From: Escherichia coli
GTDB taxonomy: Bacteria > Pseudomonadota > Gammaproteobacteria > Enterobacterales > Enterobacteriaceae
DNA: 64,000 nucleotides
Reading direction: 5' to 3' (one strand)
Assembly (NCBI RefSeq): GCF_041248615.1
Contig: NZ_CP158426.1
Positions 15,665-31,662 of this stretch are shown in pieces. The notes beneath the pieces were generated by a model that had not been told where the DNA came from, made no database searches, and worked only from the letters and a program-made list of their open reading frames with translations. Positions within the stretch are counted from its first letter, which is position 1; each line of letters starts with the position of its first letter. The position numbers and the translations under genes were made by a program.

Positions 15665-16564
15665 TTAACGCAACAATGGGCAATCTGGTGGTAATCGACA
15701 ACGCAACGCCGCCGGAAGTATTTCAATATGAAAGTTTTGTCCGCTCAACGGTTCGCCATCAAGATTAAAAGTGATTTCGTGTGGGGCTTGTATATCAAAC
15801 CACGACGAAGCGCCTTCGATAATATTCGGGTTATCTTCGTCAGATTTTAATGTTGATACGAGAGCCGGAAGAATTTCATCGCCGGTAAAAATGCGCAGTT
15901 GCAGCAAGCCATCGTTAATTAACGCGTTCGGGCACAATTGCTGACCGCCACCGGCCTGACGCCCGTTACCAATACCAATGACCAGGGCGTCACCTTGCCA
16001 GTGAAAGTTTTCACCGCGGATCTCACAACGGTCCGGTTGCAGAGTATCCATGCGCATTAAGCCATGAATGATGTAAGAGACGCCACCCAGCGCGGCTTTT
16101 AATTTTTCCGGCGTTTCTGTGGTAATACGCGTCCCAAATCCGCCTGTCGCCATATTAATAAAACAGGTTTGTTTGTTGACCTGCGCCATATCTATCGCAA
16201 TGGCGTCACCGGCAATTGCCAGTTTCAGCGCCTTATCCAGTGCCTCAGGAATCCTTACACTGGTGGCAAAATCATTGGCGGTTCCTAATGGCAAAATTCC
16301 TAGCGCGGGTATGTCATCCCCCTCACACTGAATCAACGCCGTAGAAACTTCATTAATGGTGCCATCGCCACCACCGGCAATCACCGTTGCGACGCCCAAC
16401 TTCCGGGCCTCCTCTACATATCGTGCGGCATCGCCTTTCTCCCAGGTGACCCGCACATGGATCGTCATTCCTTCCTCACGCAACAGCATAATTGCTTCGC
16501 GCAAGGGTAGATTGTCAGTGCTTTTGCCATTAAGAATCAGTAAGCTGGCGGGAATTTCTGCCAT
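15665..16564 (-). CDS. yegS: Lipid kinase, diacylglycerol-kinase catalytic-domain family
   Basis: 299 aa; GGDGT motif ([13 protein letters not shown]) of the DAGK_cat fold; recalled YegS. Confidence 0.85.
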
Positions 16565-16978
16565 GATCGTATGTGCCTTTATGATTGGTCTGTAGATAGT
16601 GTAGAGCAGAAAAGAAAAGGTGGAGTCAGAACAGGATGAAAGTCGGAGGATAAAAAGTCAGTTCAAGTATGGGGGATTCAGTGGTTACCACCAGGAGCTT
16701 GCAATGGGGACAGCGAATACTAACGGCAGCCACCGATAAATTTCAAAAAAGAGCATATACCTAATATTCAACTAAACAGTGGCATCTTCAATATACTATT
16801 AAAAATATATTAACCCCCCCATGGGGTTACCCGGAAGGGCATCCGTGTATGTAATTCCTACTTATGTAGGAAATGTTGTACAGAACATTTATTATAATCC
16901 TATTCAATTATAATAATCATGCCATTATTATATTTAAACACCAGAGCGTGTCGTTGGTATTTAATGGGGGAAGGTGAG

Positions 16979-17296
16979 ATGAAAAAGATAGCTGCTATAT
17001 CATTAATTAGTATTTTTCTTATGTCTGGTTGTGCTGTGCATAATGATGAGACAAGTATCGGTAAATTTGGTCTTGCATATAAAAGTAATATTCAGCGTAA
17101 ACTCGATAACCAATACTACACCGAAGCCGAAGCTTCTTTAGCCAGGGGCAGAATATCTGGTGCAGAAAATATAGTAAAAAATGATGCAGCTCATTTCTGT
17201 GTTACTCAGGGCAAAAAAATGCAGATAGTTGACCTGAAGACAGAAGGTGCAGGATTACATGGCGTCGCTCGTCTGACATTCAAATGTGGAGAGTGA
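16979..17296 (+). CDS. yegR: Small putative lipoprotein (lipobox LMSGC)
   Basis: ORF 16919..17296 trimmed to MKKIAAISLISIFLMSGCAVHND... (105 aa). Confidence 0.7.
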   Translation: MKKIAAISLISIFLMSGCAVHNDETSIGKFGLAYKSNIQRKLDNQYYTEAEASLARGRISGAENIVKNDAAHFCVTQGKKMQIVDLKTEGAGLHGVARLTFKCGE

Positions 17297-17453
17297 GAAT
17301 ATTTTTGGTAAGCGTCAAACATGCGCGTTCTGGTTGTGCTTAGCCGGAACCTGTGCGAGCACGATGCCGTTACGTGAAAGGCATCGTGCTATGAAGAGAG
17401 ATTCTATCGATGTGGTCAATGGAAGACGGTGACCAGGGATAGGGCTTATGCAT

Positions 17454-17480
17454 AAAAAATAAGCCCGTGTAAGGGAGATT
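17454..17480. other. 27-bp phage P2 attachment-site core (AAAAAATAAGCCCGTGTAAGGGAGATT) overlapping the cyaR 3' end; apparently unoccupied
   Basis: Exact 27-mer present in the sequence; identification as the P2 att core is from memory of the literature. Confidence 0.5.
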
Positions 17481-17540
17481 ACACAGGCTAAGGAGGTGGT
17501 TCCTGGTACAGCTAGCATTTTATGGGTTATGTTTTTCAGC
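17454..17540 (-). ncRNA. cyaR: CyaR (RyeE) CRP-dependent Hfq-binding sRNA
   Basis: Reverse complement equals GCTGAAAAACATAACCCATAAAATGCTAGCTGTACCAGGAACCACCTCCTTAGCCTGTGTAATCTCCCTTACACGGGCTTATTTTTT, including terminator hairpin and U-tail; possible TCACA CRP half-site upstream on the minus strand. Confidence 0.85.
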
Positions 17541-17624
17541 GAAACGGATGATAACCTTAATAAATGCAGCTGTATGTGATCGGTTTCTAAGAATTTTCCA
17601 TCCGGGAAAAATAATCGAAATTAA

Positions 17625-18986
17625 TCACTTACCGTGGGGGTTACGCGTGGTTTCCCCGGAGAAATTACGCATCAGCAGCGCGTAATTTAGCTCAAGATCC
17701 TGCGGCACCGGGATCCACACAGTATAACCATCGCCCGGTGCGACCGGCATTGCTTCGCCTTTGGCGTTTTCCATGTGCTCAAGGGTAAAGTTAATGTTCC
17801 CTTGCGGCGTCATCAGCTCAAGGCTGTCGCCAACGGAGAATTTATTTTTCACCGCTACCGCCGCGAGGTCGCCCTTGCGCTCACTGGTAAACTCACCAAC
17901 AAACTGCTGGCGGTCAGAAACTGAATAACCGTATTCGTAGTTCTGATAATCGTCGTGAGTATGACGACGCAGGAAACCTTCGGTATAGCCACGATGCGCC
18001 AGACCTTCCAGGGTTTCCAGCAGGCTGGTATCGAATGGTTTTCCCGCAGCTGCGTCATCGATAGCTTTACGGTAAACCTGCGCGGTGCGTGCGCAATAGT
18101 AGAAAGATTTGGTACGGCCTTCGATTTTCAGCGAATGCACGCCCATTTTGGTCAGGCGTTCAACATGGGCGATGGCGCGCAGATCTTTCGAGTTCATGAT
18201 GTAAGTGCCGTGCTCATCTTCAAACGCGGTCATATACTCGCCCGGACGCTGGGCTTCTTCGATCATAAACACTTTGTCGGTTGGTGCGCCGATCCCCAGC
18301 GTCGGTTCAACGTTTTGCACCGGAATCGGTTCGTACTTGTGTACGATGTTGCCGACGTCATCTTCTTTCCCTTCCTGGACGTTATACTCCCAGCGGCAGG
18401 CGTTGGTGCAGGTGCCCTGGTTCGGGTCGCGCTTGTTGATATAGCCAGAGAGCAGGCAGCGACCGGAGTAGGCCATGCACAGCGCGCCGTGAACGAAGAT
18501 TTCGATCTCCATATCTGGCACCTGATTGCGGATCTCTTCAATCTCTTCCAGTGACAGTTCGCGAGAGAGGATCACGCGGGTCAGACCCATTTGCTGCCAG
18601 AATTTCACCGTCGCCCAGTTCACGGCGTTAGCCTGTACTGAGAGATGGATCGGCATTTCAGGGAAGTGCTCGCGCACCAGCATAATCAGCCCTGGATCAG
18701 ACATAATCAGCGCATCCGGCCCCATTTCCACCACCGGTTTCAGGTCACGGATAAAGGTTTTCAGCTTGGCGTTGTGCGGTGCAATGTTGACCACGACATA
18801 AAACTTTTTCCCCAGCGCGTGGGCTTCATTGATGCCGAGCTGAAGATTTTCGTGGTTAAATTCGTTGTTGCGCACACGCAGGGAGTAACGCGGCTGGCCC
18901 GCATAAACAGCATCTGCGCCATAAGCGAAAGCGTAACGCATATTTTTCAGCGTTCCCGCCGGGGAAAGGAGTTCCGGTTTAAACAT
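17625..18986 (-). CDS. yegQ: Peptidase U32-family protein (family implicated in tRNA hydroxylation)
   Basis: 453 aa MFKPELLSPAGTLKNMRYAFAYGADAVYAGQPRYSLR...; characteristic U32 N-terminus. Confidence 0.85.
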   Translation of the reverse strand: MFKPELLSPAGTLKNMRYAFAYGADAVYAGQPRYSLRVRNNEFNHENLQLGINEAHALGKKFYVVVNIAPHNAKLKTFIRDLKPVVEMGPDALIMSDPGLIMLVREHFPEMPIHLSVQANAVNWATVKFWQQMGLTRVILSRELSLEEIEEIRNQVPDMEIEIFVHGALCMAYSGRCLLSGYINKRDPNQGTCTNACRWEYNVQEGKEDDVGNIVHKYEPIPVQNVEPTLGIGAPTDKVFMIEEAQRPGEYMTAFEDEHGTYIMNSKDLRAIAHVERLTKMGVHSLKIEGRTKSFYYCARTAQVYRKAIDDAAAGKPFDTSLLETLEGLAHRGYTEGFLRRHTHDDYQNYEYGYSVSDRQQFVGEFTSERKGDLAAVAVKNKFSVGDSLELMTPQGNINFTLEHMENAKGEAMPVAPGDGYTVWIPVPQDLELNYALLMRNFSGETTRNPHGK

Positions 18987-23180: not shown

Positions 23181-26100
23181 TTACTCGGTTACCGTTTGTT
23201 TAGGTTTACGCGAAAAACGCAGCCGCAGACGGTCGAAAAAGAGATACACCACCGGCGTGGTATACAGCGTCAGAAGCTGGCTCATTACCAGACCGCCGAC
23301 AATGGTGATCCCCAGGGGTTGGCGCAGCTCCGAGCCGTCACCGCCCGACAACACCAGCGGCAGCGCGCCAAACAGCGCCGCCAGGGTAGTCATCATAATC
23401 GGGCGAAAACGCAGCAGACAGGCCTGGAAAATAGCTTCCTGCGGCGTCAGGTTACCGTGCCGTTGGGCTTCAAGCGCAAAATCGACCATCATGATGGCGT
23501 TTTTCTTTACGATGCCGATTAATAGCATGATCCCTATCAGGGCGATTAGGCTGAACGGGGCATTGAACAGCTCCAGCGCCAGCAGCGCTCCAACGCCCGC
23601 CGAGGGCAGAGTGGAGAGAATCGTCAGCGGATGTACGTAACTCTCGTAAAGGATACCCAGCACGATATACACCGTGGCGATGGCGGCGATAATCAGGATC
23701 ACCTGCGAGTTCATCGTCTCCTGGAACACCTGCGCCGTGCCGGCAAAACTACCGCGCACCGTCGAAGGCACACCAAGCTGGGTCATTGCGCGATCGATCG
23801 CCGCACTGGCGTCCGAGAGCGATTTCCCGGTCGGCAGGTTGAACGAGATGGTCGAGGCTGCCGATAATCCCTGATGATTCACCGATAGTGGGGCATTCGC
23901 CGGTTGCCATTTAGCGAAATACGACAGCGGGATCGCTTTTCCTTCGTTATTGATAACGAACATTTTTTCCAGCGCGCTGATGTCCTGGGTATAACGCGGA
24001 TCCACTTCCATCACCACTTTGTACTGGTTCATTGGCTGATAAATGGTCGAGATTTGCCGCTGACCGAAGGCGTTATTTAACAGGCTGTTGGCGGCCTGTA
24101 CGTCGATTCCCAGCCGTGCCATGGTGTCGCGATCGTAAACCAGATTCATCTCCGCGCCGTTATCCTGCTGATCGGAGTTCACGTCCGCCAGTTCCGGCAA
24201 CGTCGCCAGTTTTTTGCGGATTTTCGGCTCCCATTCGCGCAGTGCCGCCAGGTCGTCGGATAACAACGTGTACTGGTAGCTGGCGTTCGACTGACGCCCA
24301 CCAACGCGAATATCCTGTACCGCCATCAGGAACAGATTCGCCCCCGGTTCTTTCGCCAGTTTTACGCGCAGACGGTCGATAATTTGCTGCGCCGTTTCGC
24401 TGCGTTCGTCGCGTGGCTTGAGGGTGATAAACATCATCCCACTGTTCACCCGCGAACCGCCGGTAAAGCCGGTGACATTATCCACCGCCGGATCGTCACG
24501 GATAATTTTCATAAAATCCTGCAACTTACCGCGCATCGCCTGAAACGAAATACTCTGATCCGCCTGTATCCCGCCCATCAACACGCCGGTGTCCTGCTCC
24601 GGGAAGAAGGTTTTCGGGATCGAGATATATAGCCAGATATTCAGCGCAATGGTGCCAAGCAGCACCACGCCCACCAGACGGGTATGATTGAGCACCCATT
24701 TCAGCGACTTGCCATAGCCTTGTTGCAGGGCTACCAACATGCGACCAAAACCACGCAGTCGCTTTTGCTCGCGCGGCTTGCTGGCTTTCAGCATCCAGCC
24801 ACACATCATCGGCGTTAGCGTCAGGGAAACCAGCAACGAAATACCAATGGCGACAGAAAGCGTCACGGCAAACTCGCGTAACAGTCGGCCCGGCAATCCG
24901 CCCATCAACAGCAGCGGCAGGAACACCGCCACCAGTGACAGACTCATCGACAGCACCGTAAAACCGACTTCGCGAGTACCTTGCAGTGCGGCTTGCAACG
25001 GTTTCATTCCCGCTTCCAGATGACGTGCAATGTTTTCCAGCACCACGATGGCGTCATCCACCACGAAACCAGTAGCAATGGTGAGCGCCATTAACGAAAG
25101 ATTATTGAGACTGAAACCGCACAGGTACATCGCCGCAAACGTACCAATCAGCGAAACCGGCACCGCAACGGCGGGAATAATAGTGGCGCGACCCGAGCGC
25201 AGGAATAAAAAGACCACCAGAATGACCAGCGCCACCGAGATAATCAGCGTTTGCTCGACTTCCTCCAGCGAGGCGCGAATAGTGGGGGAGCGATCCTGGG
25301 CAATTTGCAGATCAATCGCCGCCGGAATGGTCTCCTGCAACTCCGGTAATTTTGCCCGGATGCTGTCAACCGTCTGGATTATATTGGCTTCCGGCAGCTT
25401 GCGGATCATCAGCAAAATAGCCGGTTTGGCGTTGGTCATCCCGGCGTTACGTACATCTTGTACAGAGTCGGTCACCGTCGCCACATCGCCCAGACGAACC
25501 GCGCCGCCGTTGTTGTAATGAATAATCAACGGCTGATATTCAGCGGCGGTTTTCAGTTCATCGTTAGTCTGGATCTGCCAGCGGTGAGTATCATCTTCCA
25601 GCGCCCCCTGCGGTTTACGCACGTTGGCATTGCTGATGGCGGTGCGCACATCGTCCAGCGACACGCCCTGATTAAACAGCGCCTGCGGATTCAGCCCGAC
25701 GCGTACGGCGGGCAGTGAGCTGCCGCCGACATCGACATCACCAACACCGTCGATTTGCGAAATCGTCGGAGCCAGCTGCGTCGAGGCGAAATCGTACAGT
25801 TCACCCTGCGAATAAGTATCGGATGTCAGCGTGAGGATCATTATTGGCGCATCCGACGGGTTCGCTTTGCGATAGGTCGGACGGCTTGGCATCCCGCTGG
25901 GCAGCAAACTTTGCGCGGCGTTGATCGCCGCTTGCACATCGCGCGCTGCGCCGTTGATATCGCGGTCAAAATCAAACTGCAAAATAATGCGCGTGCTGCC
26001 GAGCGAACTGCTGGAGGTCATTTCACTGACCCCGGCAATGCGCCCAAGTGAGCGCTCCAGCGGCGTGGCAACGGAAGACGCCATTGTTTCTGGTGACGCA

Positions 26101-30856: not shown

Positions 30857-30999
30857 GAAACGGGAAAGCCCCTCCCGAGGAAGGGGCCTTAAATAAGGAA
30901 AGGGTCATGATGAAGCTACTCATCATCGTGGTGCTCTTAGTGATTAGCTACCCAGCATACTAAGACTACCAGGGCGGGGGAAACCCCGCTCTACCCTCA
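30857..30999 (-). ncRNA. Sib antisense RNA (SibB-like), copy 1
   Basis: Minus-strand promoter TTGACA-17nt-TACTTT (31034..31006) and hairpin GCCCCT/AGGGGC followed by U-run near 30857-30887; transcript fully overlaps the ibs ORF. Ends are approximate. Confidence 0.6.
30907..30963 (+). CDS. Type I toxin Ibs (18 aa, MMKLLIIVVLLVISYPAY), IbsB-like
   Basis: Short hydrophobic ORF with SD AAGGAAAGGG upstream; matches recalled Ibs family; too short for the ORF track. Confidence 0.75.
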   Translation: MMKLLIIVVLLVISYPAY

Positions 31000-31184
31000 C
31001 TCCTGAAAGTATGCCTTCACGATAAGATTGTCAATCTGCAGGCTTTGCAGTCTGCGATCCTGCCAGCAAATATTCTTTGCGAGACGTTACGCAATAATCA
31101 CACTGGAAACTATTTTATCCGCAAGTCAGCGATAGACTGCATACAGGGCGAAAGGAGGTAAGCCGACGATTTCAGCGGGACGCT

Positions 31185-31327
31185 GAAACGGGAAAGCCCC
31201 TCCCGAGGAAGGGGCCTTAAATAAGGAAAGGGTCATGATGAAGATACTCATCATCGTGGTGCTCTTAGTGATTAGCTACCCAGCATACTAAGACTACCAG
31301 GGCGGGGGAAACCCCGCTCTACCCTCA
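31185..31327 (-). ncRNA. Sib antisense RNA, copy 2
   Basis: Same promoter and terminator as copy 1, shifted by 328 bp. Confidence 0.6.
31235..31291 (+). CDS. Type I toxin Ibs (18 aa, MMKILIIVVLLVISYPAY), IbsB-like, second copy
   Basis: Same unit as copy 1 shifted by 328 bp; one substitution (L4I). Confidence 0.75.
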   Translation: MMKILIIVVLLVISYPAY

Positions 31328-31513
31328 CTCCTGAAAGTATGCCTTCACGATAAGATTGTCAATCCGCAGGCTTTGCAGTCTGCGATCCTGCCAGCAAATA
31401 TTCTTTGCGAGTCGTTACGCAATAATCACAGAGGAAACTATTTTGGTCACGCGTTAGCGATAGACTGCATTCAGGGCGAAAGGAGGTAAGCCGACGATTT
31501 CAGCGGGACGCTG

Positions 31514-31662
31514 AAACGGGAAACCCTCTCCCGGAGAAGAGGGCTTTTAATAAGGAAAGGGTTATGATGAAGCACGTCATCATACTGGAGATACTCTTAG
31601 TGATTAGCTTCCAGGCTTACTAAGAACACCAGGGGGAGGGAGAAACCTCTCCCTAACCCTCA
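31514..31662 (-). ncRNA. Sib antisense RNA (SibA-like), copy 3
   Basis: Minus-strand promoter TTGACA-17nt-TAATTT; terminator hairpin CCCTCT/AGAGGG plus U-run. Ends are approximate. Confidence 0.55.
31564..31623 (+). CDS. Type I toxin Ibs (19 aa, MMKHVIILEILLVISFQAY), IbsA-like
   Basis: Diverged third unit; SD AAGGAAAGGG conserved. Confidence 0.7.
   Translation: MMKHVIILEILLVISFQAY

Follow-up and report, generated by a model that had tools for sequence, protein, structure and literature searches.

An unoccupied P2 attachment site at the 3' end of the sRNA gene cyaR in Escherichia coli and the probable fossil of an earlier P2-like element beside it

Positions 17454-17480 (+ strand) of the window, the 64,000-nt stretch of Escherichia coli DNA analysed here, are very probably an unoccupied attachment site (attB, locI-type) for phage P2 and its close relatives, at the same chromosomal site as the ogrK/yegZ remnant (PR-X) of K-12. 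Nothing was found at the sequence level that contradicts this assignment. This attachment core overlaps the 3' end of the small RNA gene cyaR and forms the right-hand border of an 829-bp low-GC island (16652-17480) that contains yegR between att relics on both sides. An earlier P2-like element has probably left this island as its fossil, and the empty attB would be the attR end of that element. Beyond this, we lean towards a broader reading in which the empty P2 attB is itself non-native DNA, namely an attR that outlasted an ancient P2-like prophage, with yegR as the last gene of that prophage, and in which the cyaR 3' end serves as a cargo site throughout the family.

The core 27-mer, AAAAAATAAGCCCGTGTAAGGGAGATT, is present as a single copy in the 64-kb window even if up to 3 mismatches are tolerated; 0 chance matches are expected and none were seen in shuffled sequence. 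In a blastn search of positions 17297-17600 against 50,697 phage records, 17453-17480 matched positions 24355-24382 of phage P2 (AF063097/NC_001895) with 28/28 identity. The P2 record AF063097 labels 24356-24382 as 'attP' and 24356-24383 as 'Int, attP core', and this phage core is flanked on the ogr side by an IHF site and the P arm and on the other side by Cox sites, the P' arm and int. The first-pass annotation had named the 27-mer as the P2 att core, and this identification was correct, because the 27-mer matches the annotated attP core of the P2 record at 27/27 positions. The 27-nt core of P2 was reportedly defined by Yu et al. in 1989, and Barreiro and Haggard-Ljungquist are said to have described a 639-bp K-12 remnant at locI in 1992. 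The site in the window is presumably equivalent to locI of E. coli C, the primary attachment site of P2.

Most of the core belongs at the same time to an RNA gene. The CRP-dependent gene cyaR (ryeE) is located at 17457..17542 on the minus strand (Rfam RF00112, 100.7 bits at a gathering threshold of 47 bits, covering model positions 1-85/85), and its homologue in MG1655 is annotated with 87 nt. The intrinsic terminator of CyaR is a stem-loop of 11 pairs with the loop AAUCUC at 17462..17489 (minus strand), adjoined by a U-tail at 17452-17461 on the same strand. As had been proposed, the core coincides with this terminator, on which the Rfam match, the MFE fold and the terminator scan agree. Of the 27 core bases, 24 belong to CyaR, in which they cover the terminator from the loop through the 3' stem half to the U-tail; the 5' stem half (17481-17489) adjoins the core without being part of it. 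The attB copy accordingly comprises the final 24 nt of cyaR and 3 nt past the gene end. In the RefSeq (PGAP) record of a near-identical genome, as in most E. coli records seen, cyaR (17457-17542) is unannotated and its position appears as intergenic. Identification of attB and cyaR is therefore also useful for annotation, given that the record of the near-identical genome lacks the gene.

Gene annotations were taken from this near-identical genome (NZ_OW967178.1, isolate 362), which differs from the window at 11 positions in ~63 kb. The locus is bordered by two core-genome neighbours, on the left the lipid kinase gene yegS (15665..16564, minus strand), supported by annotation and by tblastn across species, and on the right yegQ/trhP (17625..18986, minus strand). 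The spacer upstream of yegS (16565..16651) is ancestral: in the alignment with E. whittamii, Escherichia sp. E1V33, 'E. coli' E69, C. koseri and K. pneumoniae, it directly abuts the cyaR 3' end in these other species. In the window, the low-GC gene yegR (16979..17296, plus strand), encoding a predicted lipoprotein of 105 aa, follows instead. Its end at 17296 is one base to the left of the end implied earlier, and the gap to the cyaR 3' end amounts to 160 nt, in line with the distance of about 160 bp first estimated. Phage genes are absent from the whole 64-kb window.

Several further features of the window and its surroundings were recorded. The window starts within an IS2-type insertion sequence (1-687) with an InsC-like ORF at 234-644 on the minus strand, at which position NZ_OW967178.1 carries a DEAD/DEAH helicase gene instead. 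According to the annotation of the same genome, three tandem type I toxin genes of the Ibs family (ibs/sib repeats) occupy the mdtA-yegL interval at ~30907-31623. An indel of 171 nt is found between 17301 and 17302, 4 nt past the yegR stop codon, for which the window represents the short form. The extra 171 nt occur in ~20% of sampled E. coli genomes and also in the flank of the prophage record ON470606 (L005, 2499-2669), and a related form is present in Escherichia sp. MOD1-EC7003 (L102). An att-linked insertion was considered for this length difference and rejected, as it is far from the core and constitutes an indel within the yegR island.

That the attB is empty becomes apparent from a comparison with K-12. 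In MG1655 and the K-12-type strain 9A the gene order is yegR, a D-gene fragment (yegZ), ogrK, cyaR, yegQ, which matches the earlier statement that an ogrK/yegZ remnant separates cyaR from yegR in K-12; this remnant, PR-X, is inserted exactly at the core. The K-12-type locus corresponds to the window plus ~630 bp at the core, consisting of a partial core, D', ogrK, the P arm and a full core. In pairwise BLAST, the K-12 insert is flanked on one side by the counterpart of window positions 16900-17471 and on the other side by that of 17446-18000, and the 26 nt shared by both alignments, which include the left 18 nt of the core, are duplicated in K-12. The insert contains 641 nt with 96.7% identity to P2, a stretch that begins within gene D and continues over ogr and the P arm to the core. 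At the yegR-side junction of K-12 a partial core, AAAAAAATAAGCCCGTGTA, is fused straight to D, and the cyaR-side junction is a complete attR, so that the 3' end of cyaR lies within attR in the K-12 state. The 'cryptic prophage PR-X' feature of MG1655 (2167183-2167811) overlaps the final 18 nt of cyaR (2167114-2167200) and leaves out yegR. Between yegR and cyaR of the window, ogrK and the D fragment, i.e. the content of PR-X, are absent and yegR, core and cyaR are contiguous, which makes the window no member of the PR-X type and upholds the proposed empty attB. The comparisons with the K-12 yegQ-yegR interval and with P2 attP both agree with this reading.

Occupation of the same junction by a complete phage is documented by ON470606 (vB_EcoM-720R8), a full P2-like prophage whose record includes the bacterial flank, with the order gatR, yegS, yegR, a left flank like that of the window, core, P', int, C and cox. 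The prophage is oriented with int towards yegR (attL) and ogr towards cyaR (attR). Since it sits at the same place with the same left flank, the window represents the unoccupied form of the site. Sequence identity, a locus shared with K-12 and natural prophage junctions are therefore all found for this core.

Among 5,426 complete E. coli genomes, 5,423 contain the 1.1-kb locus. With a 161-nt probe spanning the core (17380-17540) that was required to be contiguous, the site was scored as empty in 4,207/5,426 genomes (77.5%). A junction of flank, core, P' and int, i.e. a P2-type attL, occurs in 817/5,426 (15.1%) and the partial-core/D junction specific to K-12 in 358/5,426 (6.6%), many of which are laboratory strains; the three states together account for 5,382 genomes. 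Other remnant forms at the site (E. coli H146-H156) include one of ~3.5 kb with tail protein I, tape measure, D and ogrK and one of ~3 kb with int, D and ogrK. These varied forms imply repeated independent integration and decay. The designation of the site as a recombination hotspot is thus well founded, given the int junctions, the K-12-type remnants and the additional remnants in this collection.

An empty P2 site could alternatively result from recent precise excision of a P2-type prophage, in which case the strain would be a cured lysogen. Precise excision by Int and Cox restores a perfect attB, so both histories look identical, and core position 13 of the window carries the phage-type C, which forms a G-U wobble in the terminator stem, where some E. 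coli (L004, L037) have T; the C versus T difference could reflect a past exchange with a phage core. No positive trace of such an event was seen, however, and the site is likewise empty in the nearest genome and in four others of at least 99% identity, as it is in the majority of the species. We consider a cured lysogen improbable and regard the site as simply unoccupied.

The existence of an empty P2 site at cyaR is already known, as it is encoded in the annotations of P2 and MG1655 and in the literature. ryeE (= cyaR) in E. coli was described by Bobay et al. 2013 as 'previously known to be targeted by phages', citing Wassarman et al. 2001 (PMC3603311), and sdsR in Salmonella is an analogous phage target (Frohlich et al. 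2012, PMC3333887). The integrases and att sites of the P2 family were reviewed by Nilsson et al. 2011 (PMC3448106), according to whom P2-type integrases tend toward intergenic sites and the 186 type favours tRNA genes. Because the empty form is the majority state and the site is established knowledge, the empty attB of the window is in itself unremarkable.

The use of the site extends beyond E. coli. In a survey of one genome per species (GTDB), a scan for the CyaR pattern yielded 120 loci in Enterobacteriaceae. In 63/120 species, yegR is missing and only 74-145 nt separate the core from the yegS start codon; this uninterrupted yegS-cyaR arrangement is found in Klebsiella, Enterobacter, Kosakonia, Atlantibacter, Citrobacter koseri, E. 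whittamii and Escherichia sp. E1V33, and also in the divergent 'E. coli' E69. A canonical P2-type P arm abuts the core in 14/120 species, often after an ogr-type terminator and in several cases with ogr and D upstream, and 42/120 species carry other insertions at the cyaR 3' end. P2-like junctions of the order D, ogr, P arm, core, cyaR were seen in Citrobacter, Enterobacter and Buttiauxella. Roughly half of the 120 species show an insertion at this position, in agreement with the designation of the site as a hotspot. In Kluyvera spp. (L105, L109, L117), the core is 27/27 identical to that of P2, yegS is 750-830 nt away, and a small plus-strand gene with a product ending in ...TLSKAPH has its 3' end ~15 nt from the core, a lineage-specific insertion. 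A 9.7-kb contig labelled as a Collinsella MAG (L080) carries a P2-type D (97.8% amino-acid identity to P2), ogr (100%), a P arm, the core and cyaR, and almost certainly consists of E. coli/P2 DNA that contaminates a metagenome bin of Actinobacteria.

The same survey bears on the possibility that the 27-mer is merely a conserved CyaR terminator whose identity with the P2 core has no consequence and which does not function as attB. The core is strongly conserved in Enterobacteriaceae for reasons of the sRNA, with 0-2 mismatches to the P2 core in 79/120 species, and as a result of this sRNA-driven conservation the presence of the core alone is no proof of phage use. Against this stand the P2-type attL junctions of the 817 E. 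coli genomes and the deposited prophage, which lie at exactly this core with the same left flank, as well as the P2 remnant that K-12 carries there and the complete identity of the core in the window. A purely RNA-related explanation is thereby largely refuted and hardly credible, and the assignment as attB is retained.

In addition to the intact core, the DNA to its left contains what appear to be the ends of an older element. The interior of the island has a GC content of 32-41%, compared to 50-56% in yegS and yegQ. At its left border, 16652..16678 (plus strand), lies AAAAAGTCAGTTCAAGTATGGGGGATT, a putative att core in decayed form (attL scar) that matches the P2 core at 19/27 positions. In a de novo repeat search this scar and the intact core emerged as the top direct repeat of the region, 802 nt apart, and in the alignment with species that retain the ancestral yegS-cyaR junction the scar falls exactly at the position of their core. 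Immediately after the scar, 16679..16745 (plus strand) is a candidate relic of the P' side of attP from a P2-type phage; it is collinear with P2 and keeps the P2 spacing to the core, and its right edge at 16745 is an alignment estimate. The alignment of core and P' together reached a score that was attained by 1/2000 shuffles, and the P' relic of the window without the core scored 18 versus 17.0 +/- 2.2 in shuffles, which is not significant. In the better-preserved homologue of Escherichia sp. MOD1-EC7003, the segment after the core alone gave z = 5.4 with 0/2000 shuffles reaching its score. What makes the P' relic significant is thus this homologue, together with the unchanged offset and the core scar next to it.

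On the other side of the island, a P-arm relic corresponding to the Int arm-binding region, TCGATGTGGTCAATGGAAGACGGTGACCAG, is located at 17407..17436 (plus strand) and is 87% identical to the P-arm Int site of P2 (L001, 1439-1468). BLAST with the P2 att region revealed it immediately to the left of the core, in the orientation it has in P2, and its local score was 38 compared to 15.7 +/- 2.1 in shuffles, 0/500 of which reached 38. P arms from P2-like prophages of four genera can be aligned to it. The IHF-site spacer beside the relic is ~17 nt shorter in the window than in Escherichia sp. MOD1-EC7003, where it is near-complete, and in phages. Further to the left, a hairpin with 14-nt arms that are 93% complementary, without a T-run, was detected as an inverted repeat at 17358..17390, the place of the ogr terminator in P2-like phages. 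A terminator-like hairpin, TAACCCCATGGGGGGGTTA, with a T-rich tail also occurs at 16811-16829 on the minus strand, between the att scar and yegR. No recognisable phage genes or pseudogenes are present inside the 829-bp island, of which yegR is the sole gene. With direct repeats of the core, arm relics in prophage orientation and absence of the island from 63/120 species, the features of a phage remnant are nevertheless present, and it is likely that the fossil ends of the island are real.

Alternatively, the relics in the flank may not stem from one fossil. yegR could have arrived by another route and the relics could have been left by separate later P2 integrations followed by deletions, or the arms could have been captured from the host. 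The lack of a phage gene in the island and the occurrence of YegR homologues elsewhere that are not phage-linked would fit such a history, and partial deletions of P2 prophages at the site are frequent and varied, in K-12 as in other strains. The arrangement of the relics points in the other direction: the core scar sits exactly at the ancestral junction with the intact core 802 nt off in direct orientation, and P' beside the scar together with P beside the intact core reproduces the orientation of a single prophage. A host origin of the phage arm is unlikely, since P2-like prophages have this P arm conserved also in genera in which empty sites carry none. A composite origin therefore seems unlikely overall, and a single earlier P2-like element is the reading followed here. 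On this reading, PR-X of K-12 would be a second, younger remnant nested against the fossil.

Whether yegR came with this element is a separate question. The YegR family (PF27694) is almost confined to E. coli/Shigella and the gene has a GC content of 32-43%. In a tblastn search of YegR against the 50,697 phage records, the only matches were to records with bacterial flank, and the PHROG family that matches YegR (phrog_21109) may stem from such flank too. Distant homologues occur within an IS-rich stretch of an Enterobacter genome and beside mug in another enteric, and none of those examined lies in a prophage. Because no phage link for YegR was found, the cargo idea is drawn from the position of the gene, and an origin of yegR as phage cargo is possible rather than probable. 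Comparable arrangements exist, as in P2-like prophages of other genera the interval from ogr to the P arm holds low-GC cargo, such as 2.3 kb in Enterobacter sp. L077 and a gene for a 127-aa lipoprotein in Trabulsiella L121. In Salmonella enterica subsp. diarizonae (L088), an insertion of ~2.9 kb between yegS and cyaR includes an SseK2-type effector gene (NF011910, 743 bits), the product of which is a type III effector arginine glycosyltransferase, and a decayed P2-type P arm, ATGTGGTCAAT, is located by cyaR, 57 nt from the core. This arrangement suggests a P2-like phage, integrated at the same att site, as the source of the SseK2-type effector.

P2 Int is a tyrosine recombinase that assembles on attP together with IHF via arm sites. 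Judging from established P2 biology, Int would pair the identical 27-nt cores of attP and attB, with strand exchange taking place inside the core. After integration, attR on the ogr side would contain a reconstituted cyaR, and the other core copy would come to lie in attL, on the int side by yegR. Since the loop, the 3' stem half and the U-tail are also present in the phage core, cyaR would remain intact. The geometry after integration, with one core joined to the body of cyaR, is seen directly in K-12-type genomes and in natural prophages. For the window, an older P2-like element would account for the succession of a decayed attL (scar and P'), an interior with yegR, a terminator hairpin, a P-arm relic and a perfect core, and the attR core of this fossil may then have been reused as attB by later P2 phages. 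The right-hand core would have been kept perfect because it is the CyaR terminator and hence under purifying selection.

As an integrase target, an sRNA terminator offers a durable landing pad, since selection on the RNA keeps the sequence constant; remnants and accessory genes from one phage after another accumulate next to it in layers. CyaR has been studied in K-12, where its 3' end is part of such a remnant. If the proposed history of the yegR island is true, it provides an origin for an uncharacterised gene that is restricted to E. coli and a clean example of how reuse of an att site builds small genomic islands. The cyaR 3' end would then be a place across Enterobacteriaceae where the cargo of P2-like phages outlives the phage, as in the case of yegR and the SseK2-type effector in Salmonella diarizonae. 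In the literature covered, which was incomplete, no paper on the yegR island as a P2-like fossil was found, and nothing relevant on yegR together with prophages. What may be new, if modest in scope, is limited to the nesting of remnants at this locus and the deposition of cargo at the cyaR 3' end throughout the family.

Compared with known systems, the site resembles P2 locI and K-12 PR-X in its position between yegR and cyaR/yegQ, in the 27-nt core and in the orientation of attL and attR, and it differs from PR-X in being unoccupied, without ogrK or the D fragment. It shares with phage integration at the 3' ends of other RNA genes (tRNA, tmRNA and sRNAs such as ryeB/sdsR in Salmonella) a core that spans a terminator or acceptor-like hairpin and a phage that supplies the replacement 3' end. 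Unlike in tRNA-targeting phages, however, the target here is the terminator of an Hfq-dependent sRNA. Similar to 'grounded' prophage remnants with a moron gene, the yegR island exhibits a decayed att repeat, arm relics, low GC, one accessory gene and absence in sister species. It differs from these remnants in being tiny (829 bp) and in having no phage structural or regulatory gene, and in that one of its att copies is perfect and still used as attB.
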